The position numbers and the translations under genes are program-made. The notes under the pieces are model-generated. The model had not been told where the DNA came from, ran no database searches, and saw only the letters and a program-made list of their open reading frames with translations. Shown here piece by piece: positions 2 through 21,083 of a stretch of 22,410 nt of DNA. This DNA comes from a virus. The stretch lies in IMG/VR virus record IMGVR_UViG_3300009506_000203; one strand, written 5' to 3'. The first letter of the stretch is position 1; each line of letters opens with the position of its first letter.

Positions 2-958
2 GACCACGTCAACATCCGGCTGAAGCTGTCCCACCGGGTCAGCTTCGAGGGTGACCCCGAGAAGTGGTTCGACGTGGAGAACTACGTCAAGTTCCTGTGC
101 GACCACGTCCGGTCGGTGCTCAAGGGCGCCGTCAAGCGGATGACCGTCGAGAGCTTCTACGAGAACGCTGTGGACTTCGTCCGCGATACGATTCTCGGGA
201 AGGCCGAGGAGAAGGCCGGTCGGCCAGGCATGGTGTTCGAGGAGAACGGCATGCGCATCGTGGACATCGAGGTGCTGAGCATCCAGATCGTGGATCAGAC
301 GGTGTCCCAGCTGCTCGCGCAGGCGCAGCATGATGTCGTCGCCGGCAACATCATGCTCGACAAGGAGCGGCGCCAGCTGGTACTGACCCAGGAGCGTGAG
401 CGTGTCGCGCGCGAGCGCCGCGAGGCCGAGTACGAGACCGCCGCCCACGGGCTGAAGCTCACGTCGCAGCAGATCGCGGCCGAGCTTCAGGTCGAGATCG
501 AGCGGGCCAACAGCCAGCTCCAGCAGCAGAACAAGGAGAAGCAGGCCGTCGTGGCGGCCCGCGAGGCGATCTCCGACACCGAGCACAAGGCCAGCCTGGA
601 TCGGATCCAGGCGACCGAGCAGCAGCGGCTCAACGTCAAGAAGTCCGAGATCGACCTCCAGCGCGAGAGCCTGGAGGCCGAGGCCAACTCCGTGGTCAAG
701 CGGTTCGAGGCGCTTCAGCCACGGTTCACCGAGGCGCTGCTGGCGCTCCGCGACAGCCGCACCATCGAGGCCGTGGCCGAGGCGTGGAGCATGAACCGGG
801 TCGTCGGCGGCGCCAGCGTGGCCGACGCGCTGAGCACGGTGTTCAAGAACACCCCGCTCGGTGGGATCGCGCAGCGGCTCGCTGGCAGCAACGGCGAGTC
901 CGCTACGGTCGTTCCCGAGCCGCCGCAGCCGCCGACGAGGCCGCGTAGCCGGTCGTAG
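2..958 (+). CDS. SPFH/band-7 (flotillin-like) domain protein, 5'-truncated by the window edge
   Basis: The reading frame is open from nt 2, and listed ORF 74..958 is only its in-window Met-to-stop part. The block IVDIEVLSIQIVDQTVSQLLAQAQ followed by a long Q/E/R-rich coiled coil is typical of the C-terminal half of SPFH proteins. GC3 is high. Confidence 0.5.
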   Translation, partial: DHVNIRLKLSHRVSFEGDPEKWFDVENYVKFLCDHVRSVLKGAVKRMTVESFYENAVDFVRDTILGKAEEKAGRPGMVFEENGMRIVDIEVLSIQIVDQTVSQLLAQAQHDVVAGNIMLDKERRQLVLTQERERVARERREAEYETAAHGLKLTSQQIAAELQVEIERANSQLQQQNKEKQAVVAAREAISDTEHKASLDRIQATEQQRLNVKKSEIDLQRESLEAEANSVVKRFEALQPRFTEALLALRDSRTIEAVAEAWSMNRVVGGASVADALSTVFKNTPLGGIAQRLAGSNGESATVVPEPPQPPTRPRSRS

Positions 959-960
959 CG

Positions 961-1176
961 ATGCCTGACATCACGATGTGTACTGGAGGGGACTGCCCGT
1001 TCAAGGGCAACTGCTGGCGTGCTACGGCCACGCCGACGCCTATGCGCCAGTCCTGGTTCGAGGCGCCGCCGTTCCGTAAGGGACCTGGCGTGGACCGTGC
1101 AGGTGACGAGTTCGCCTGCTGCGCAGTAGACTCGTCGGTGGTCTCCTGCACCTACTACATCGATGACCGCTCCTAG
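961..1176 (+). CDS. small Cys-rich protein (CTGGDCPFKGNCWR...CC...C), possible metal-binding
   Basis: The ATG lies 2 nt after the upstream stop, suggesting coupling. It has 8 Cys in 71 aa. It is followed by a strong terminator. Confidence 0.45.
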   Translation: MPDITMCTGGDCPFKGNCWRATATPTPMRQSWFEAPPFRKGPGVDRAGDEFACCAVDSSVVSCTYYIDDRS

Positions 1177-1180
1177 ACAA

Positions 1181-1222
1181 GCCGGGGCCGGCGCCCTGCC
1201 ATCCACGCCGGCCCCGGTTTTG
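1181..1222 (+). terminator. intrinsic terminator (11-bp GC stem 1182-1192/1207-1217, then TTTT)
   Basis: CCGGGGCCGGC and GCCGGCCCCGG form a perfect inverted repeat followed by TTTTG, directly after the stop at 1176. Confidence 0.6.
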
Positions 1223-1251
1223 TCACCCCAGTCTGCTAACGTGCCCCCATC
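1218..1251 (+). promoter_or_regulatory. conserved cassette TTTGTCAC-N5-TCTGCTAA (copy A) preceding the operon head
   Basis: TTGTCAC at 1220-1226 and TCTGCTAA at 1232-1239 sit 12 nt upstream of ATG 1252. Copy B at 5116-5135 has identical spacing. TAACGT (1237-1242) is a possible -10. Confidence 0.4.
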
Positions 1252-1827
1252 ATGATCGCCGGGATCACAGGCCACCGGCCCTTGAAGCTAGGTGGCTACG
1301 ACGAACCCATGCGTGAGATTCTGGTCGAGACGCTGGCCGGACTTCTTGTCCGTGACGGCGCGACTCGTGGAGTCACCGGCATGGCCATCGGCGCTGATCA
1401 ATACTTCGCCGAGGCGTGCCTGTCTTTGCGCATTCCCTTCACGGCCGCGGTCCCCTTCGAGGGCCAGGAATCTAGGTGGCCGCCAGCTGCACAGCGCAAC
1501 TACCACAGGCTGCTCGCACTGGCCGCCAGCGTCGTCTACGTCTCGCCGCCGGGCTACGCCTTGTGGAAGATGCAGGCACGCAACCAGTGGGTGGTCGATC
1601 ACTGCGATCAACTCTACGCCGTCTGGGACGGCAGCACGGGCGGCACCGCCAACACGGTCATCTTGGCCAACAGGGCTCAGAGGATCGTGGAAGTCATCAA
1701 CCCAAGAGAGCTGATACATGCCCAACGAAACCCCCAACGATCAGCCGAGCGAAGACAGCCGGCCCTGGTGGCAACTGGTTCGCGTACAAGCCTTCGGCGG
1801 CCGGGTAAAGGAGCTGGAGACGCCTGA
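1252..1827 (+). CDS. YpsA/DUF1273-like SLOG-domain protein
   Basis: The N-terminal ITGHRP...LGG, the GMAIGADQYFAEA and the NQWVVDHCDQLYAVWDG blocks match the YpsA family pattern recalled from memory. The last ~36 codons overlap the next gene out of frame and have lower GC3. Confidence 0.5.
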   Translation: MIAGITGHRPLKLGGYDEPMREILVETLAGLLVRDGATRGVTGMAIGADQYFAEACLSLRIPFTAAVPFEGQESRWPPAAQRNYHRLLALAASVVYVSPPGYALWKMQARNQWVVDHCDQLYAVWDGSTGGTANTVILANRAQRIVEVINPRELIHAQRNPQRSAERRQPALVATGSRTSLRRPGKGAGDA

Positions 1828-2275
1828 GCTACGCGCCATCCACGAGGAGATTCAAGGAGCCGTACTGGGATTGCAGGGGGAGATAGAAGCCGAGAGCTAC
1901 GAGCTGCAAGTGGTCCGCGACCTGGCCCGCAAGCTTGGACCAGCCATCGCTTTCGATGCAGATCGGTTTGCTGCGGCCATCGTGAAGGAGTACGAGATTG
2001 CGCTCGACGAAGCGCATGAGATGGTGGACACCTTCGACTGGTGGCAGCGCGCGCGGAAGGCGCTCGGCTTCATGAAGCAGAAGCAGTCCATCGTCAGCGC
2101 CGAGGTAGCCCGCCGCCGAGCTGGCGATGCGGAGCAAGCTGTGTTCGCCATCAAAGGCAAGGTCAAGAAAGCCTCCTTGCTGCTCACTCGAATCCGCAGC
2201 AAGAACTCAGCCCTCGCCGAGGCCCGCAAGCTCATCGACGAGGTCGAATCACATCTGGACAAGGTAGGACCATGA
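1718..2275 (+). CDS. hypothetical protein (185 aa)
   Basis: It has an ATG start, high GC3 from the start, and an ATGA overlap with the next gene. Confidence 0.5.
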   Translation: MPNETPNDQPSEDSRPWWQLVRVQAFGGRVKELETPELRAIHEEIQGAVLGLQGEIEAESYELQVVRDLARKLGPAIAFDADRFAAAIVKEYEIALDEAHEMVDTFDWWQRARKALGFMKQKQSIVSAEVARRRAGDAEQAVFAIKGKVKKASLLLTRIRSKNSALAEARKLIDEVESHLDKVGP

Positions 2276-2472
2276 CACTCAGAGATACCAAGCCTGGTGA
2301 GCAGGTGATCAGCAACTCGTGGACCGGGTTCGTTTGGAAGACGGAGAACGTCCCCCGTGAGCTGACTGTGATCGAGCACGTCGGTGACTGCGTGTGGTGC
2401 AGATCCACTGACGGGTTCAACGCCGAGCGCTATCCCCTTCACGCCGACCTGGTCTGCCGCCGTGTCGTATGA
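2272..2472 (+). CDS. hypothetical small protein (66 aa, CxxC near the C-terminus)
   Basis: ATG 2272 overlaps the upstream stop in an ATGA, and AAGGTAGGA lies upstream. The listed ORF 2041..2472 is an upstream extension in the same frame. Confidence 0.45.
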   Translation: MTLRDTKPGEQVISNSWTGFVWKTENVPRELTVIEHVGDCVWCRSTDGFNAERYPLHADLVCRRVV

Positions 2473-2744
2473 TCGTCGTGCGGCTAGAGGTGTGGCCGCG
2501 GGGTAGGGAGGCGGCTAAGACCGAGCTGGGACTCGTGAAGATCGAGAACGATCTCACCGGAACGACCGCGCTCGGCAACTACATCTACACGTTTCTGCGC
2601 AAGCCGGCAGAGGCTATCCACCCGCGAGTCTGGATTCAGGGTCGCGTCGAGGGGTTTCCCCGCGCTCCTGCGGTCACGACCAGCCCCTGGCAGCTGCTGC
2701 GAGGTGTTCTCGACCACGCGCTAGGAGCTTCGGTATGGCCCTGA
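2469..2744 (+). CDS. hypothetical protein (91 aa)
   Basis: It has an ATGA overlap with the upstream gene and sits in an operon context. Confidence 0.5.
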   Translation: MIVVRLEVWPRGREAAKTELGLVKIENDLTGTTALGNYIYTFLRKPAEAIHPRVWIQGRVEGFPRAPAVTTSPWQLLRGVLDHALGASVWP

Positions 2745-3172
2745 CCCGTAAGATCGCCACCGAGCTGGTCGATGCCCTCAACGACCAGATGGAGCGTTGC
2801 CCTGGCTGCCACGGCGTCGGCAAGGTTCGACAGAGCGGCGACTACCAGGCCTGCTTCTGCCTGGTCTGCGAGGAGTCGGCGCGGGCGCTCTACCTGCTCA
2901 ACAGGAACGACCCCGACAGCATGGCCAAGCTCTCTGACCCGCACGTCCTGGAGGTGCTGCGGCCTGACTACGAGCGCACGGCCAACGCCGCTCGCGAGTT
3001 CGTCAAGCGCTGCCCTGGCTGCTTCGGAATCGGCAAGGTTTGGGCCGGAGCCCAACAGCGCTACTGCCTGGTGTGCCACCGACTCAGGCGTGCCATCGAA
3101 GCCTACGACGGCGTGACCGAGCTGGACAGCACACAGCCGAACGTCGTTCCGATCCCAACGAGGAAGCTATGA
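2735..3172 (+). CDS. tandem CxxCxGxG (DnaJ CR-type) zinc-finger protein
   Basis: Two repeats are present: RCPGCHGVGKV...CLVCE and RCPGCFGIGKV...CLVCH. AGGAG lies 7 nt upstream of the ATG. Confidence 0.55.
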   Translation: MALTRKIATELVDALNDQMERCPGCHGVGKVRQSGDYQACFCLVCEESARALYLLNRNDPDSMAKLSDPHVLEVLRPDYERTANAAREFVKRCPGCFGIGKVWAGAQQRYCLVCHRLRRAIEAYDGVTELDSTQPNVVPIPTRKL

Positions 3173-3756
3173 AGCAACGCGTGACGGCCACTGGCGTGGT
3201 CAACTGGGAAGGCACCGACCTCGATCCAGCTCGGGATGAGTTGATCGACGAGCGGTTCTTGCGCCCATCGATCGTGCGCGAGTTCATCCGTGCGACTGCA
3301 CCGAGCAAAGATGCTGCGAGCTGCCCCTGCTGTGGCCAGTTCGCCAAGGTCTACAAGCGGCACATCACAGGCGCGATGGCATGTGCTCTGATTCAGATCT
3401 ACCGGTACTACTGGAAGAACGCCTGGACTACCGAGTGGCTGCATGTCCCCGAGTACCTCGCGGCGCAGAAGATGCCCGCCAAGGTCAAAGCGGGTTGGCA
3501 CGGTGGAGATTGGTCGAAGCTCCGCTTCTGGCAGCTCATCGAGCCGAAGGACGACGAGCGCGCGGATGGTTCTCCTCGGGTCGGCTTCTACCGCATCACT
3601 GACCTCGGTCGGGACTTCGTCGAGCGCAAGATGGAGGTCCCCAAGTACGTCTTCCTCTACGCGAAGACACCGCTCGGGCTCGCGCTGCCCTACATCACCA
3701 TCGAGGACGCGCTCGGCGCTTCGTTTAGCTACAGCTCCTTGATGGACGGCATCTAA
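3169..3756 (+). CDS. hypothetical protein with a CPCCG motif (195 aa)
   Basis: ATG 3169 overlaps stop 3172 (ATGA). The listed ORF 3040..3756 is an upstream extension in the same frame. Confidence 0.5.
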   Translation: MKQRVTATGVVNWEGTDLDPARDELIDERFLRPSIVREFIRATAPSKDAASCPCCGQFAKVYKRHITGAMACALIQIYRYYWKNAWTTEWLHVPEYLAAQKMPAKVKAGWHGGDWSKLRFWQLIEPKDDERADGSPRVGFYRITDLGRDFVERKMEVPKYVFLYAKTPLGLALPYITIEDALGASFSYSSLMDGI

Positions 3757-3811
3757 CGCACCGATTCAACTCCAGTAGCCAGATACCTCACCCGGAAATG
3801 GTATCGCGACG

Positions 3812-3842
3812 TACACTCCGCCAATTGATCGCAGCTGCGATC
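3812..3842 (+). promoter_or_regulatory. -10-like TACACT (3812-3817) followed by palindrome GATCGCAGCTGCGATC (3827-3842, site 1)
   Basis: The 16-bp perfect palindrome lies in the 106-bp gap before gene 3863. The -10-like hexamer ends 9 nt upstream, and GGGGG (the SD) follows the palindrome. Confidence 0.4.
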
Positions 3843-3862
3843 CCATTTTCCAGGGGGTCACT

Positions 3863-4435
3863 ATGTTCCTTTTGCTTGTACTTCTCAGCGCGTTTCTAGC
3901 GCCCATTCAAACAGCGCAGATTCCGACTGGTGGCTCCATGCGCACGAGTCGCGGCATCTCGACGATCTTCGGCTACTACGGTGACCGCTATGGCCGAAGC
4001 CCAACTCGCTGCCTCTACGATGATGACGGCAACAAGCGCCCCGTTGATCCCGAGCACGATATCGGCATCGCGCACCGCGATCTAGACTGTGGCGCGGTCG
4101 TCTACATCACCAACCTGGAGACCGGGCTGTCGATCCGAGCTGTGGTCGTGGATGCAGGACCGTGGGGCGCGATGTCGAAGAACGCCGCTGGCAAGCCGAT
4201 CTGGTACGTCAAAAAGAACACGAATGCTCGGCCAGGCCGCGATGTCTGCCCTTCGAGGAAGTGCCCGGTCGGCCGCTGGCGCGGGATAGCCGACCTCACG
4301 CCCAAAGCGGCTGAGCTGCTCGGCCACGACGGCTGGGCGAAGATCGTCCTCACCTATGACAAGCGCGACCTGCGCAGCTACAAACGGCTTCAGAAGGCCA
4401 AAGAGGCTCACGAGGACAGGAGGAACCAGAGCTGA
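3863..4435 (+). CDS. secreted RlpA-like double-psi beta-barrel (DPBB) protein
   Basis: The N-terminal signal peptide is MFLLLVLLSAFLAPIQTA. YYGDRYGRSPTRCLYDD...IGIAHRDLDCGAVVYITNLETGLSIRAVVVDAGPWG matches the RlpA DPBB pattern. Confidence 0.6.
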   Translation: MFLLLVLLSAFLAPIQTAQIPTGGSMRTSRGISTIFGYYGDRYGRSPTRCLYDDDGNKRPVDPEHDIGIAHRDLDCGAVVYITNLETGLSIRAVVVDAGPWGAMSKNAAGKPIWYVKKNTNARPGRDVCPSRKCPVGRWRGIADLTPKAAELLGHDGWAKIVLTYDKRDLRSYKRLQKAKEAHEDRRNQS

Positions 4436-4809
4436 TGCGACGCGTGATCATCGAGAGTCCCTACGCCGGCAACATCGAGGAGAACCTGGCCTACGTCCGC
4501 GCAGCGATGAAGGACAGCTTGAGTCGAGGTGAAGCTCCATTCGCATCCCATGCGTTGTACACGCAGCCTGGCGTCCTCAACGACGATGTCCCCGAGGAGC
4601 GCGAATGGGGCATCCATGCGGGGTTCGCATGGCGAGCTGCTGCCGAGGCGACCGTCGTCTACACCGACTACGGCATCTCGAAGGGCATGACATACGGCAT
4701 CGAAGCCGCGCAGAAAATGGGACAGCCGGTCGAGTACCGCACGTTGACGGCCGCAGCCCTGGCAGTGCTGAAGGCGATCAGCGAGTCATCACAGCCAGTA
4801 CCAGCCTAG
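4435..4809 (+). CDS. DUF4406 / nucleoside 2-deoxyribosyltransferase-like protein
   Basis: The N-terminus VIIESPYAGNIEENLAYVRAA resembles the AGPxSG...N motif of NDT-like phage proteins. There is a TGATG overlap with the upstream gene. Confidence 0.4.
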   Translation: MRRVIIESPYAGNIEENLAYVRAAMKDSLSRGEAPFASHALYTQPGVLNDDVPEEREWGIHAGFAWRAAAEATVVYTDYGISKGMTYGIEAAQKMGQPVEYRTLTAAALAVLKAISESSQPVPA

Positions 4810-4845
4810 CTATCACGACTAGTGCCGCCGTGATAGGATTACGGG
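4810..4845 (+). promoter_or_regulatory. inverted repeat CTATCACG-N11-CGTGATAG overlapping the extended -10 TGATAGGAT; leaderless promoter for 4846
   Basis: The arms are at 4810-4817 and 4829-4836. TGA-TAGGAT (4831-4839) ends 6 nt before ATG 4846, and there is no SD. Confidence 0.45.
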
Positions 4846-5037
4846 ATGCCGCGCAAGAGTTCGTCGCCATCCATCCGCACCTACCCCTACGTAGTCCGCT
4901 ACAAGAAGGGCGGGGCGACCTTCATGACGACGAAGAAGGGCGCTTGCGAGATGGCTGGCGTGATGCGCGAGCACTCTCCTCGAATCTACCTTCGGACAAC
5001 TGCGGGGGAATCGCGTATCAGCTGCAAGCGTCGCTAG
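4846..5037 (+). CDS. small basic protein (63 aa), leaderless
   Basis: It has an ATG start, GC3 of about 70%, and a putative terminator downstream. Confidence 0.4.
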   Translation: MPRKSSSPSIRTYPYVVRYKKGGATFMTTKKGACEMAGVMREHSPRIYLRTTAGESRISCKRR

Positions 5038-5080
5038 CTCTAGCTGGACTGAGTTGGCTGCGTGGCTCTAGGCGCGAATA

Positions 5081-5110
5081 GCCCCAGACGGGGCCGAATC
5101 GCGTCTTTTT
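5081..5110 (+). terminator. putative intrinsic terminator (GCCCCAGACGGGGC hairpin ... TCTTTTT)
   Basis: A 5-bp GC stem sits at 5081-5094, and the alternative stem AGACG/CGTCT ends in the T-run 5106-5110. Confidence 0.45.
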
Positions 5111-5114
5111 CGCA

Positions 5115-5146
5115 TTTGTCACACCTCTCTGCTAAAAAGAGGGTCC
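5115..5146 (+). promoter_or_regulatory. conserved cassette TTTGTCAC-N5-TCTGCTAA (copy B) plus SD AAAAGAGGG
   Basis: TTGTCAC is at 5116-5122, TCTGCTAA at 5128-5135, and the ATG at 5147. The spacing is the same as in copy A. Confidence 0.4.
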
Positions 5147-5542
5147 ATGAAAGACATGTTCGATCTGGAATCGAAGGTCCCCGACGAGCCGGAGGCCGAG
5201 ACGACCGAGGAGCAGGCGCCTGAAGGGCAGCCCGCAGCGCAGCCGCCGGGCGGTAACTACATCGTGCAGAACATCGTTCCGATGTTTCCCGGGTGGAGCG
5301 CCTGCTACGGTGACCCTGAAGTGCCCGAAGGCGTGATCACCTTCCCGGTCGTCGCACTCGCGCTGGTCCTGCTGCAACACCCCGACGGCCGCGCTGAGCA
5401 GACGGTCCGACATCTGGTCTCGACGCCGGCCGGGCAGATCGACGACATCGTCGAGTTACCTAACTTCATCTGTGTTGTGTCGCCGGGGCAGTCGCCCGAG
5501 GCGATCATCTCAGCCATGCAGAAGCTGCAAACGGCTTCCTAG
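5147..5542 (+). CDS. hypothetical protein (131 aa, acidic N-terminus)
   Basis: It has an ATG with an SD. Confidence 0.5.
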   Translation: MKDMFDLESKVPDEPEAETTEEQAPEGQPAAQPPGGNYIVQNIVPMFPGWSACYGDPEVPEGVITFPVVALALVLLQHPDGRAEQTVRHLVSTPAGQIDDIVELPNFICVVSPGQSPEAIISAMQKLQTAS

Positions 5543-10882: not shown

Positions 10883-11509
10883 CTACTCGATCTCGTCGGC
10901 GCCGAGAACCCCTCGCAGGCCCGCGCTGACGTTGACGCAGCGGACGGCTGCCCGGAGCGACTTCTGCCGCCGACATGCCCGAGCAATCTTGCGGCCGCGG
11001 GGAGTTAGCGCGGCTTCGACGAACCACTCACCGTCGGGACGCTGCGTGAACCTGTACAGATCGCCTTCTACTTCAGCCTCCCAGCGGGGAACGATCGCCG
11101 CGCGTCTGCGGAGCAGCGTGTCCCCTACTCTCACGGCCTTTCCCAGCACGCCTTTGGCTATGAGCTGCGGGTCCAGCTCATAGACGTGCTCGATGCCCGA
11201 TGCCGTATGGAACACGACCGGTGTGCCGTCGGGGTATCGCGATCGATACCAGGTCACGCTCCAGTCATTGCGCATGAATTCGGCTGTGAGGTCCCGACCT
11301 TCACCCCACCAGTCGCGCTTGACCACCTTCCACCCTCCCACAGCCTTGGCAAACTGGTTCGGGGTGATCTCCTCGGCGTGGTTCGTGATGTACTGCACGA
11401 TGTCGTCGTCTGTTTCAGCAATAGCGGCAGCGTTGTGCTCGGGCGGTGGACTCGGGCAGTGCCAAGCGAAGTGGTAGCCTCCGGGCGTCAGCTTGGTGTT
11501 CTTCGACAT
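10883..11509 (-). CDS. hypothetical protein (208 aa), leaderless
   Basis: GTGATAGGAT on the minus strand ends 7 nt before ATG 11509. Confidence 0.5.
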   Translation of the reverse strand: MSKNTKLTPGGYHFAWHCPSPPPEHNAAAIAETDDDIVQYITNHAEEITPNQFAKAVGGWKVVKRDWWGEGRDLTAEFMRNDWSVTWYRSRYPDGTPVVFHTASGIEHVYELDPQLIAKGVLGKAVRVGDTLLRRRAAIVPRWEAEVEGDLYRFTQRPDGEWFVEAALTPRGRKIARACRRQKSLRAAVRCVNVSAGLRGVLGADEIE

Positions 11510-11550
11510 CGAATCGATCCTATCACCTGCCGATGATAGAGTGGAAGCTC
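11510..11550. promoter_or_regulatory. 41-bp divergent region: inverted repeat CTATCA-N8-TGATAG whose two arms are the extended -10 elements of back-to-back leaderless promoters
   Basis: On the minus strand, GTGATAGGAT is followed 7 nt later by ATG 11509. On the plus strand, GATGATAGAGT is followed 8 nt later by GTG 11551. Confidence 0.45.
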
Positions 11551-11835
11551 GTGAAGAAGCTCGCCACGGTTCGCCACATAGACGGTTCTTTCTATGCCTG
11601 GATCTTTCAGTGCCCAGGCTGCCACGACGTGCACCTCGTCGATGGTCGATGGTCCTTCAACAACGACCAAGAGAAGCCGACGTTCCAGCCGTCACTGAAA
11701 CGAACGCGCCCAGGTTACTGCTGCCACTCGTTCGTTCGTGACGGAAAGATCCAGTTTCTCGGTGATTGTACGCACGAGCTTGCGGGCCAAACCGTCGAGA
11801 TTCCAGACTGGGATGGATGGGGCGGCTACGAGTAG
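11551..11835 (+). CDS. hypothetical CPGC...CC protein (alternative start ATG 11533)
   Basis: The listed ORF 11446..11835 extends into the divergent gene. GTG 11551 fits the leaderless promoter, while ATG 11533 lies inside the -10. Confidence 0.45.
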   Translation: MKKLATVRHIDGSFYAWIFQCPGCHDVHLVDGRWSFNNDQEKPTFQPSLKRTRPGYCCHSFVRDGKIQFLGDCTHELAGQTVEIPDWDGWGGYE

Positions 11836-13086: not shown

Positions 13087-13120
13087 AGCGTGAGTCTACA
13101 CCATGATCGCGGCTGCGATC
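13087..13120 (-). promoter_or_regulatory. palindrome site 2 (GATCGCGGCTGCGATC, 13105-13120) followed by GTGTAGACT promoter
   Basis: The palindrome abuts the stop of the upstream minus gene. On the minus strand, the -10 is 6 nt downstream of the palindrome. Confidence 0.45.
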
Positions 13121-18034: not shown

Positions 18035-18073
18035 GGGCCCCAGTATACACGGTCTCGGATCGCAGCTGTGATC
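18035..18073 (-). promoter_or_regulatory. leaderless promoter GTGTATACT plus palindrome site 4 (GATCGCAGCTGTGATC, 18058-18073)
   Basis: On the minus strand, TATACT ends 7 nt before ATG 18034. The palindrome lies 10 nt upstream of the -10, in the -35 position. Confidence 0.45.
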
Positions 18074-19688: not shown

Positions 19689-19704
19689 GATCGTGTGAGC
19701 GATC
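19689..19704. promoter_or_regulatory. palindrome-family site 5 (GATCGTGTGAGCGATC)
   Basis: It has the GATCG-N6-CGATC arms and overlaps the stop of the minus gene 19703..19951. Confidence 0.3.
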
Positions 19705-20038: not shown

Positions 20039-20812
20039 TCAGCGCAAGGATACCACGCGGTAGCCTTCGATGTGCACGTAGAGCAACGTCCCATCAGGTG
20101 GCCGCGGGTCTTCCTTCTTGGAGCGCTTCGTGAACCCAATGTCGAACTGGCCGTCGAAGTTCTGTCGCGGTGGGATGAAGACATCGAGCGGCTGCGGACG
20201 TAGTTGGAGCTGGTGTGCAAGGCCCGTTGCTATCGTCCTGCCGCCAAGATGCAGCGTGACAGCGCCGTAGAGCGGTTGGACAGCGGGGAGTGTCGTCACG
20301 TAGAAGTGGGTCGCGAACGCGATGTCGTCGCCCCAGACGAGCTGACCGGCTACTGTAAGGTTCGTCCGCTCGACGGCGCCAACGTTCGCGTTGCTGAATA
20401 ACCGGACTCGACTGAACTCTCCGAAGATGCCTCCGAACTCGATCGAGTCGTAGACGTGAAGACGCTGGAGGTCGTTGACGCGGATCTTCCGGTCGTCATC
20501 TACGCTGTCCATGAAGCGCTTGAGCAGCCAGGATGGAGCTTCGTCGAGCCGCCGTAGGTCCCGCAACAATCGAGCAGCGCGCACAGCCAGGTCACCAGGG
20601 CTGCTGGACTCCTGGCGCTTGATTCGCTCGATGATGGTCTCTTGGGCCTCGTCAGGCAGCGCATCCCAGGGCTGCGGGATCCCCTCGGCATCGCACCAGA
20701 GTGAACCGAGCAGACCCATTCGGTAGCGGTCTACTATCTCCGTAGCTACGTCGAGCTTGCCGACGACGGCAGCCGCTTCGGCTGCGTCCAGTACATCGTC
20801 GAGGTCGGACAC
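20039..20812 (-). CDS. hypothetical protein (257 aa)
   Basis: It has a GTG start. It is long and coding-like, with a divergent promoter region upstream. Confidence 0.5.
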   Translation of the reverse strand: MSDLDDVLDAAEAAAVVGKLDVATEIVDRYRMGLLGSLWCDAEGIPQPWDALPDEAQETIIERIKRQESSSPGDLAVRAARLLRDLRRLDEAPSWLLKRFMDSVDDDRKIRVNDLQRLHVYDSIEFGGIFGEFSRVRLFSNANVGAVERTNLTVAGQLVWGDDIAFATHFYVTTLPAVQPLYGAVTLHLGGRTIATGLAHQLQLRPQPLDVFIPPRQNFDGQFDIGFTKRSKKEDPRPPDGTLLYVHIEGYRVVSLR

Positions 20813-20820
20813 GCAGGCAG

Positions 20821-20852
20821 TTTGTCACAGCGGTGTGACAGACTAGCCGGCC
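20821..20852. promoter_or_regulatory. palindrome TGTCACA-gcgg-TGTGACA in a divergent intergenic region (contains TTTGTCAC)
   Basis: The arms are at 20823-20829 and 20834-20840. Each arm gives a GTGACAnACT -10-like element pointing at the flanking start codons. Confidence 0.35.
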
Positions 20853-21083
20853 ATGGCAATCATGCGATGGAATGTCCGGGTCGTGCGCGTCGAAGCGAGT
20901 GGCGAGGAGCGCTTCGAGTTTCACGAGGTAGAGCAAGATGAAGGCAAGGCGCCGCACGCGATCCACCGCGAGCAGTTCGACACCGACGGCAAAGACGTGA
21001 AGGAGCTTTACGACCGGCTCCGTCACATGCTCGGCGCCATCAACCAGCCCGTGCTCAACATGGGCGACTACCCCGACCGATGA
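20853..21083 (+). CDS. hypothetical protein (76 aa)
   Basis: It has an ATG start and an ATGA overlap with the next gene. Confidence 0.45.
   Translation: MAIMRWNVRVVRVEASGEERFEFHEVEQDEGKAPHAIHREQFDTDGKDVKELYDRLRHMLGAINQPVLNMGDYPDR

Follow-up and report, generated by a model that had tools for sequence, protein, structure and literature searches.

What is the short sequence that recurs, with constant internal spacing, ahead of separate genes in this viral DNA? The window, by which we mean the whole 22,410-nt stretch analysed, contains exact copies of TTTGTCAC-N5-TCTGCTAA at 1219-1239 and 5115-5135 on the + strand, ending 12 nt before ATG 1252 and 11 nt before ATG 5147, respectively. An earlier note had described these 15 defined nucleotides, their common spacing and their distance of 11-12 nt from the two start codons, all of which hold, although both copies begin one base earlier than it had given (1219 and 5115). 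The copies are identical at 18 of 21 bases (TTTGTCACnCCnnTCTGCTAA), and no further match exists in the window with up to three mismatches allowed. Shuffled sequences gave a mean of 0.05 matches, and none of 100 shuffles contained two copies. The more general composite TGTCAC-N5-TnTG-nnA is present at four sites, which represent three loci with a palindrome counted on both strands, versus 0.022 in 1000 dinucleotide shuffles. A chance likeness, or a functionless scar of recombination, might still be suspected from there being only two exact copies in the window and from the gene rearrangement around both. However, this idea is contradicted by the shuffles, by the rigid spacing and by the conservation of the TGTCAC box at orthologous sites in up to five lineages with proteins 40-70% identical; we give it practically no weight and reject it. 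The features of the three sites are collected in Table 1.

Table 1. Positions of the putative promoter elements and terminators, and of the genes, at the three sites in the window.
Feature	Position	Strand	Detail
Terminator-like hairpin, GC-rich, 3' of vault-like/ORF71 genes	1176-1224	+	-36.6 kcal/mol, z -6.3
Site 1 upstream box TTTGTCAC	1219-1226	+	core TGTCAC 1221-1226, predicted -28 to -23
Site 1 extended -10 (putative)	1232-1242	+	T(-17)-C-TG-C, hexamer TAACGT 1237-1242
Site 1 predicted transcription start zone and ATG 1252	1249-1254	+	from geometry; leader 0 to at most 3 nt
YpsA/SLOG-like gene	1252-1827	+	Pfam YpsA match from residue 5
Window-specific inserted transcription unit (putative moron)	4744-5114	+	missing in relatives
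Moron promoter TGATAGGAT (predicted)	4831-4839	+	
Moron 63-aa ORF	4846-5037	+	
Moron intrinsic terminator (predicted)	5070-5110	+	fold 5070-5106 plus CUUUUUC; -24 kcal/mol, z -3.0
Site 2 upstream box TTTGTCAC	5115-5122	+	core 5117-5122
Site 2 extended -10 (putative)	5128-5138	+	TCTGC, hexamer TAAAAA 5133-5138
Site 2 gene	5147-5542	+	ATG 5147, 8 nt past TAAAAA
257-aa gene	20039-20812	-	GTG 6 nt past CAAACT (CATCAT in relatives)
Site 3 bidirectional box promoter (predicted)	20819-20844	both	two overlapping divergent promoters
Site 3 hexamer CAAACT	20819-20824	-	reverse complement
Site 3 hexamer CAGACT	20839-20844	+	
76-aa gene	20853-21083	+	ATG 8 nt past CAGACT; 6-7 nt in relatives

The sites share a composite layout in which the TGTCAC box is followed by N5, T-N-TG-N, a -10 hexamer (NAnnnT/A), 6-9 nt and the start codon. 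Judged by its sequence, TCTGnTAnnnT, the right half is an extended -10 element of the ordinary sigma70-family kind, comprising TGn and a TAnnnT hexamer. In the window, the TG stands at -15/-14, one base 5' of the hexamer (TCTGC-TAACGT, TCTGC-TAAAAA, TGTGA-CAGACT and TGTGA-CAAACT), a register that is the same in orthologues and shifted by one base in groups G4-G6 of relatives. Orthologues of site 1 carry TCTGT-TAGTGT, TCTGG-TAGTGT, TTTGG-TAAGGT or TTTGT-TAGGGT, with the start codon 6-7 nt past the hexamer, and those of site 2 read TCTGA-TACATA-6 nt-ATG and TCTGT-TACAAC-7 nt-ATG. The hexamers of sites 1 and 3 have A at position 2 and T at position 6. Site 2 hexamers, in the window and in relatives, are without the T at position 6, and this was counted against a promoter reading.

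Many other genes of these phages use the extended -10 without TGTCAC. In five family loci (the window, L024, L026, L059 and L060), there are 54 TGnTAnnnT sites, of which 20 are followed at exactly 6-7 nt by the start codon of an ORF with 60 aa or more, and 22 lie 5-8 nt from a start codon as against 1.27 in shuffles (maximum 6). This placement suggests leaderless or near-leaderless mRNAs, and we infer from the geometry that transcription starts at, or within ~3 nt of, the start codon. Leaderless extended -10 promoters of Mycobacterium, Streptomyces and Deinococcus-Thermus have the same TG one base 5' of a TAnnnT-type hexamer and no -35; in Actinobacteria and Deinococcus-Thermus the start codon is likewise 6-7 nt past the hexamer, with the A or G of ATG or GTG as +1. 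The Streptomyces -10 consensus, TAGRRT, is similar to the general promoters of the phage family, TGATAGRNT. In mycobacteria, an ATG or GTG at +1 is enough for leaderless translation (PMC4633059). The hexamer-to-ATG distance in the window is 9 nt at copy 1 and 8 nt at copy 2, the family typically having 6-7 nt, and a Shine-Dalgarno-like GAGGG lies between the copy 2 hexamer and ATG 5147. These longer distances and the GAGGG were counted against the leaderless promoter reading.

No TTGACA-like hexamer was found 16-18 bp upstream at site 1, and 18 bp upstream at site 2 there is only a weak TTCGCA (4/6 match to -35). Since the spacer between TTGTCA and the hexamer is 11 bp at every site, compared with the canonical 16-19 bp, the cassette is not a sigma70 -35/-10 pair, as had been recognised at the outset.

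The class-specific part is the 5' half only, that is, TGTCAC plus T at -17. None of the general TGATAGnnT promoters has TGTCAC, and T at -17 is found in 12/12 box promoters versus 1/20 general promoters; the cassette thus has two features that ordinary promoters of these phages lack. The proposal in the earlier note of a phage-specific promoter or recognition element is thus right in that a promoter-type element stands at the heads of gene clusters, recurs and is conserved in relatives. It does not extend to the 15-mer as a whole, whose 3' half is the standard element and whose 5' half is specific to the class. TGTCAC occurs 67 times in the seven family loci compared; a TAnnnT follows at exactly 10 nt in 11 of these cases, and all other spacings from 0 to 30 score 0-3; this rigid spacing is observed directly in seven orthologous groups. 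Further box promoters precede a DUF87 ATPase gene, a 72-aa gene, a 542-aa gene and a 185-aa gene, the distribution being that in partial genomes (the window and the relatives' loci). At site 2 of L086 the box is lost and a canonical -35 (TTGACC, 16-bp spacer) is present, which suggests that the box substitutes for a -35. The loss of the box and gain of the -35 is a single event, and the sister lineage L087 has a weak -35-like TTGGAC as well as the box.

Two short elements separated by N5 also recall the sigma54-type -24/-12 promoter (TGGCAC-N5-TTGCW), which the cassette resembles superficially as TGTCAC-N5-TCTGC. Here the G of the -24 element is replaced by T in all copies and orthologues, the spacing is one base over (GT-N11-GC instead of the strict GG-N10-GC), the base after TG varies in orthologues (TCTGC, TCTGT, TCTGG, TCTGA, TGTGA), and it is the TAnnnT hexamer that is conserved instead. 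With the GG, the N10 spacing and the conserved GC all failing, a sigma54 promoter has a negligible probability and was ruled out.

The cassette had been defined as following terminators, and the strong hairpin before copy 1 and the hairpin with T-run before copy 2 are indeed present (Table 1). At site 1 the 3' arm of the hairpin runs into the TTTG of the box and is followed by UUUUGU, the features of an intrinsic terminator, which we predict it to be. In L024, L026, L086 and L087 a hairpin of equal strength and different sequence ends 1-5 nt 5' of the box; TTGTCAC is invariant in five lineages, the adjoining N5 is wholly changed and the hairpin sequence has diverged. The terminator before copy 2 is predicted to belong to a window-specific gene cassette. 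This insert has the make-up of a moron, with its own putative promoter, ORF and terminator between genes that are adjacent in relatives: in L024, L026 and L027 the DUF7768 gene directly joins the 131-aa gene, and the sequence ...TACCGCAC runs straight into TTGTCAC. The box is conserved before the orthologous 131-aa gene in L024/L025, L026/L027 and L087, and four lineages retain site 2, including where the upstream neighbour differs or the site falls in coding sequence. In relatives, copy 2 sits inside the upstream gene, at its 3' end, and no terminator precedes it; site 3 has none either, and a terminator is not a defining trait.

The hairpins upstream of copies 1 and 2 might suggest an RNA-level signal for processing or translation in read-through transcripts, or the loading site of a Q/N-type antiterminator that had also been proposed. 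The lambda Q binding site, which lies between the -35 and -10 of its promoter, would favour the latter. However, the distance that is fixed is that to the -10-like hexamer and the start codon, not to the hairpins, and the terminator is missing at site 2 of relatives and at site 3. Moreover, the palindromic site would work on both strands, the cassette has no Rfam match, and several copies head small gene groups, unlike a single late promoter. We found nothing in support of a loading site and consider an RNA-level role very improbable.

On balance, we think it probable that the cassette is a box-class promoter, with the extended -10 read by a sigma70-family RNA polymerase and TGTCAC by a trans-acting factor. 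A housekeeping-type holoenzyme would recognise the T at -17, the TG at -15/-14 and the hexamer, and transcription would start 6-9 nt 3' of the hexamer, at or ~3 nt from the start codon. TGTCAC (~ -28 to -23), 10 nt from the hexamer, would occupy the place of a -35 element and be read in fixed geometry. What we observe directly is the motif, how it is conserved and where it stands with respect to start codons; we infer the polymerase, the existence of a box factor and the sign of its effect. Most likely, the reader would be encoded by the phage, as an activator or a sigma-remodelling system comparable in concept to MotA/AsiA, and would define a co-regulated gene set.

In T4, the MotA box, (a/t)(a/t)(a/t)TGCTTtA, stands in for the -35 and lies 12±1 bp from the -10 element; about half of the MotA-box promoters have TGn (PMC2988021). 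As in T4 middle promoters, a phage-specific box would take over from the -35, its distance from a host-type -10, often with TGn, being short and fixed, and the promoters would form a co-regulated class scattered through the genome. It differs in the box itself (TGTCAC, not TGCTTtA, so that it is not a T4-type MotA box) and in its predicted leaderless or near-leaderless mRNAs, those of T4 being leadered. The spacing is exactly 10 bp rather than 12±1, and the box is therefore centred near -26, not -30. T4 encodes MotA and AsiA, whereas neither the window nor the family loci examined yielded an activator, a sigma factor or a MotA/AsiA-like protein; a Pfam search of the 42 ORFs of the window, ~22 kb of a phage genome that is probably >230 kb, gave no MotA- or AsiA-like match.

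A phage-encoded activator, a sigma-remodelling factor and a special sigma are all possible readers. One variant, which we hold to be doubtful, is that a phage factor replaces or repositions sigma region 4, so that the polymerase reads TTGTCA 11 bp from the hexamer in a MotA/AsiA-like manner that evolved independently. Less probable still is a displaced -35-like TTGTCA read by a phage sigma, or by the host sigma with region 4 moved. TTGTCA does match TTGACA at 5/6 positions with rigid spacing, and the displaced sigma4 of the gp39-bound Thermus holoenzyme, near DNA at -19 to -26, offers a precedent (PMC3950348). However, the first T of this hexamer varies (T/C/A/G) and shows only moderate conservation, whereas the C that trails TTGTCA never changes, and a sigma-like gene was not seen in the loci examined. 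Nor do we know of any sigma70-family factor with a spacer of ~11 bp. The Thermus phage P23-45 itself has extended -10 promoters without a -35 (PMC3950348). Its middle/late promoters, under the gp39/gp76 switch, share this -35-less element with the cassette, and the setting is likewise high in GC and prone to leaderless mRNAs; the loci examined here yielded no homologue of gp39 or gp76. To our knowledge, no upstream box has been described for P23-45 promoters, unlike the cassette. If a phage factor does replace or reposition sigma region 4, TTGTCA only 11 bp from the -10 would be a new promoter geometry, and the system one of sigma appropriation by a large, uncultivated phage with a high-GC host.

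The strongest challenge to an activator comes from site 3, where the third TTTGTCAC reported at 20821 was indeed found (20821-20828) within the TGTCACA/TGTGACA palindrome. The palindrome, TGTCACA-GCGG-TGTGACA (20823-20840), is a perfect 7-4-7 repeat of 18 bp, identical at 18/18 positions in the window, L059 and L060, and lies within a 22-nt invariant block with variable flanks. Such an inverted repeat between divergent genes has the look of a classic operator: a dimeric phage or host protein could bind it, and the degenerate TGTCACm-N4-TCTGnTA, to shut off constitutive leaderless promoters. The sites overlap the extended -10 and first hexamer bases, and in both promoters the palindrome reaches from ~ -28 to -11, where an occluding protein would typically sit. 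Furthermore, the class-specific T at -17 is the first base of the right half-site, and the right halves of copies 1 and 2 match the palindrome at 4-5/7 positions. CI/Cro-type operators and mycobacteriophage stoperators likewise place a perfect inverted repeat between divergent genes, overlapping both promoters, with partial copies at other promoters. The cassette differs in its rigid spacing, in the asymmetry of most copies and in having no recognisable DNA-binding gene next to it; even at E<10, Pfam gave no match to the flanking 76-aa and 257-aa proteins, in which no DNA-binding domain was seen, although a regulator might be encoded elsewhere. (The AlphaFold model of the 257-aa protein, with pLDDT 49, was unusable.) A repressor would not need the 10-nt spacing kept in seven orthologous groups; indeed, a second, operator-like intergenic palindrome, GATCGC-N4-GCGATC, lies a variable 3-9 nt from hexamers. 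The right halves in G4-G7 are not palindrome-like (TTGTG-TA, TCATG-TA, GTCGG-TA), position -22, the symmetry partner of the invariant T(-17), varies (A/C/T), and L086 has lost the box with a -35 present. We regard a repressor operator as a lesser, though serious, possibility and favour a positive, MotA-like role.

The cassette is thus most likely a conserved promoter of an uncultivated large phage with a box read by a regulatory factor. At site 3, each strand's box is the complement of the other strand's TGTGA-CA (20823-20840), and because of this one 18-bp palindrome may drive two divergent leaderless genes, forming a 41-bp bidirectional leaderless promoter in which the box complements the extended -10. 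The third TTTGTCAC begins 32 nt before ATG 20853, compared with 33 nt at copy 1 and 32 nt at copy 2, a common register that the earlier note had missed.

Both copies of the cassette, TTTGTCAC-N5-TCTGCTAA, were recovered exactly on the + strand and with equal spacing. They have 18 of 21 bases in common and end shortly before a start codon, 12 nt before ATG 1252 and 11 nt before ATG 5147, as the earlier note had described. No further match occurs in the window, even with three mismatches allowed; shuffled sequences gave a mean of 0.05 matches, and none of 100 contained two copies. The third TTTGTCAC is indeed embedded in the palindrome of site 3, where the note had placed it. Overlooked there was its distance from the gene: it begins 32 nt before ATG 20853, the corresponding values for copies 1 and 2 being 33 and 32 nt. 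The composite TGTCAC-N5-TnTG-nnA is present four times in the window, against 0.022 expected. On sequence grounds, the cassette is probably a promoter.

Coordinates and composition of predicted promoter elements, hairpins and genes (parts of site 1 given as box / N5 / extended -10 / hexamer)
Feature	Locus	Position	Strand	Details
Copy 1 (site 1)	window	1219-1239	+	TTTGTCAC / CCCAG / TCTGC / TAACGT; TG-C-TAACGT, 9 nt, ATG
Site 1	L024			CTTGTCAC / CCCGA / TCTGT / TAGTGT
Site 1	L026			CTTGTCAC / CCCAA / TCTGG / TAGTGT
Site 1	L086			CTTGTCAC / TGCTG / TTTGG / TAAGGT
Site 1	L087			TTTGTCAC / CGCTA / TTTGT / TAGGGT
Copy 2 (site 2)	window	5115-5135	+	TG-C-TAAAAA, 8 nt, ATG
Third TTTGTCAC	window	20821-20828		inside palindrome of site 3
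Site 3 palindrome	window	20823-20840		TGTCACA-GCGG-TGTGACA
Site 3 -10 region	window		+	TG-A-CAGACT, 8 nt, ATG 20853
Site 3 -10 region	window		-	TG-A-CAAACT, 6 nt, GTG 20812
Box promoter	L059			10-nt spacing; ahead of DUF87 ATPase
Box promoter	L024/L060			10-nt spacing; ahead of 72-aa gene
Box promoters	L086			10-nt spacing; ahead of 542-aa gene and of 185-aa gene
GATCGC palindromes	window	3827-3842, 13105-13120, 18058-18073, 19689-19704		
General-class element	window	11500-11560	-	TGATAGGAT, for gene 10883-11509
General-class element	window	11500-11560	+	TGATAGAGT
Hairpin before site 1	window	1176-1224		-36.6 kcal/mol, z -6.3
Hairpin + T-run before site 2	window	5070-5106		-24 kcal/mol, z -3.0
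Insertion (~370 nt)	window	about 4744-5114		TGATAGGAT promoter; 63-aa ORF 4846-5037; intrinsic terminator
Vault-like (MVP shoulder) protein, C-terminal part	window	2-958		
71-aa ORF	window	961-1176		
YpsA/SLOG-like gene	window	1252-1827		

Syntenic relatives were retrieved by exact-protein look-ups in metagenome assemblies: L024 (a 143-kb contig), L025, L026, L027 and L028; L059 (a 90-kb contig whose sample also yielded L024) and L060; and the more divergent L086 and L087. Their proteins are about 40-80% identical to those of the window, and about 130 kb of family sequence was compared in total. The 143-kb and 90-kb contigs of one sample suggest a genome above 230 kb.

In this family, TGnTAnnnT, usually as TGATAG(R)NT, stands upstream of many genes, with 6-7 nt between it and the ATG or GTG. 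Across the window, L024, L026, L059 and L060 we counted 54 such sites, 20 of them exactly 6 or 7 nt before the start codon of a reading frame with 60 aa or more; 22 lie at a distance of 5-8 nt, compared with 1.27 (maximum 6) in 100 dinucleotide shuffles. This placement is the signature of predicted sigma70-family extended -10 promoters with leaderless mRNAs, as in Actinobacteria, where ATG or GTG at +1 is enough for translation (PMC4633059). The 3' half of the cassette fits the same design. The hexamer-to-start distance in the relatives is mostly 6-7 nt; site 1 of L087 differs, having an 18-nt leader with a Shine-Dalgarno sequence.

The left half behaves as a separate, class-specific element. 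TGTCAC occurs in none of 20 general-class promoters (those of the TGATAGnnT type), and T at -17 is found in all 12 box promoters but in only one of those 20. Among the 67 occurrences of TGTCAC in seven family loci, TAnnnT lies exactly 10 nt downstream in 11, a count that excludes the palindrome sites with CAnnnT, which come on top; the remaining spacings between 0 and 30 score 0-3 each. When the hexamer is set at -12 to -7, TGTCAC occupies -28 to -23, which leaves 11 bp between TTGTCA and the hexamer, much less than a sigma70 -35 requires. The earlier claim that the cassette fits no -35/-10 pair is correct, but its right half is a standard -10 region. A canonical -35 is ruled out by spacing and base identity. 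Sigma54 was also rejected, there being T in place of G at -24, a spacing of N11 and a variable 'C' at -12. An antisense promoter, conceivable in that TGTCAC is the complement of TGTGACA, was discarded for copies 1 and 2, whose antisense hexamers lack T at position 6. An Rfam scan was empty, which disposes of a known RNA family, and a tRNA scan was empty as well.

Site 1, ahead of the YpsA-like gene, is retained in five lineages; its N5 and the sequence of its upstream hairpin have diverged, and the hairpin is strong in all five. Site 2 is retained ahead of the orthologous gene in L024/L025, L026/L027 and L087; L086 has lost the box there and shows a canonical -35, TTGACC, with a spacer of 16 bp. 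The palindrome of site 3 is identical at 18 of 18 positions in the window, L059 and L060, enclosed in a 22-nt invariant block with variable flanks, and the hexamers on both sides keep CAnnnT, 6-8 nt from the start codons. L060 also keeps the box and hexamer of the L059 DUF87 promoter, with no long ORF after them. Box promoters are absent from L125, a 241-kb contig of a more distant YpsA-bearing phage, which limits the box class to a narrower clade. What is established is a class-specific box at rigid spacing to a sigma70-type -10, the lack of a -35, and strong purifying selection. The promoter class is real and conserved; it is predicted to be factor-associated, -35-less and of the extended -10 type, and belongs to an uncultivated large phage. 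It would mark a co-regulated set comprising the SLOG/YpsA-like protein, the DUF87 ATPase and the divergent 76-aa/257-aa pair.

The description of the cassette as a 'post-terminator' element did not survive this comparison. The hairpin ahead of site 1 is structurally conserved, unlike the terminator ahead of site 2; site 3 has no terminator. At site 2 the terminator belongs to an insertion, seen in none of the relatives, between ...TACCGCAC and TTGTCAC. With its own promoter, ORF and terminator, this is a moron-like unit that came in directly ahead of a promoter already there; its arrival created the apparent 'terminator plus cassette' module. Both junctions carry short CGCA(n)nTTG microhomology. 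In L024 and L026 site 2 lies within the final codons of the DUF7768 gene, without a terminator, and L087 has another gene upstream of the site. Since a conserved terminator is missing at sites 2 and 3, the cassette goes with the gene that follows it rather than with terminators. In relatives, homologues of the 71-aa ORF before site 1 precede the vault-like gene at a distance of several kb (L024 1422-1601, L026 2284-2463), indicating that in the window's genome the ORF was relocated to a place between that gene and the site-1 hairpin.

The rigid geometry points to a trans-acting factor that would read TGTCAC in a fixed position, jointly with RNA polymerase; we infer the transcription starts, the polymerase, the factor and a host with actinobacterial-type transcription and translation from sequence features. 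On balance, and guardedly, we favour a promoter whose box acts positively and is read by such a factor. The box might instead be a repressor operator, as a perfect palindrome overlapping -10 regions is typical of such sites, and the right half-site starts with the T at -17; that no activator was found in the sequence compared also counts against a positive role. However, the spacing of box to hexamer is rigid, whereas GATCGC-N4-GCGATC lies at variable distances from its hexamers, and at L086 site 2 a canonical -35 is present and the box is gone. Both observations argue for a positive role, and we regard an operator as unlikely. A CI/Cro pair was rejected, the flanking 76-aa and 257-aa proteins having no HTH or other Pfam match; the AlphaFold model of the 257-aa protein (pLDDT 49) was too poor for a structure search.

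For a positively acting box, the closest analogy is with T4 middle promoters, in which an upstream box replaces the -35 near a host-type -10: the MotA box lies 12±1 bp from the -10, and TGn is present in about half (PMC2988021). Thermus phage P23-45 also has extended -10 promoters without a -35 (PMC3950348). A literature search for the motif itself returned nothing relevant. If the factor is an activator or sigma remodeller, this would be an independent case of phage promoter-specificity switching; for a repressor, the master operator would be the 18-bp palindrome. The elements form a regulatory code of an uncultivated phage lineage that is specific enough to be tested.

Another palindrome also recurs between genes: GATCGC-N4-GCGATC, mostly in the form GATCGCAGCTGCGATC, has many copies in L024, L026, L059, L060, L086 and L087. 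It is still present in L125 (near 16850), the more distant phage without the TGTCAC box. It often lies 3-9 nt before a -10 hexamer and leaderless start, or in short leaders; because this spacing varies, it may be an operator or a small hairpin. The lineage appears to have three putative promoter flavours, namely plain extended -10, TGTCAC box and GATCGC palindrome, all geared to leaderless mRNAs. Back-to-back general-class elements also occupy the short divergent intergenic region at 11500-11560, which may be another compact bidirectional promoter; the start on the + strand is ambiguous (ATG 11533 or GTG 11551).

Megablast of the window against GenBank phages gave no match, and there is no close relative of the lineage among sequenced phage isolates. 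Scans of IMG/VR (exact motif and family consensus) and of JGI metagenome contigs (consensus plus ATG) gave only single chance-level matches without homologous genes, indicating that these pattern-scannable collections do not contain the lineage; protein-based searches of IMG/VR found no relatives. The 18-bp palindrome TGTCACACCGCTGTGACA had 34 matches in bacterial genomes, none near phage homologues. In many Cupriavidus and several Streptomyces species the exact copies occupy orthologous sites that look intergenic, and an Acidimicrobiia MAG contig has two. With orthologues collapsed, the matches are close to the calculated chance number and give no host clue.

The window has a GC content of 63%. 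The vault-like protein, which has MVP shoulder and Vault_3 domains, is 878-894 aa at full length in L024, L026, L086 and L087. Homologues among GenBank phages (37-39% identity) are confined to uncultured huge phages of 462-735 kb (LR756500, LR756501, LR756503); the 462-kb phage (24% GC) has no related promoters. The window also encodes DUF7768, DUF1653, CYTH, NUDIX and APS kinase proteins, and a protein that matches PHROG families without known function; its best phage match is annotated RecT-like. The relatives also carry peptide deformylase, APS kinase and NUDIX genes, and intein/LAGLIDADG homing-endonuclease signatures lie in a 466-aa protein and an SNF2 helicase (L060 609-2009, L086 1-1985), in keeping with a large phage that has many auxiliary genes. 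Finally, the YpsA/SLOG-like gene (191 aa; homologues 166-188 aa), missed by one public gene caller, overlaps the next gene (1718-2275) by 110 nt (1718-1827), which may reflect an extended C-terminus or a difference in sequence or frame.
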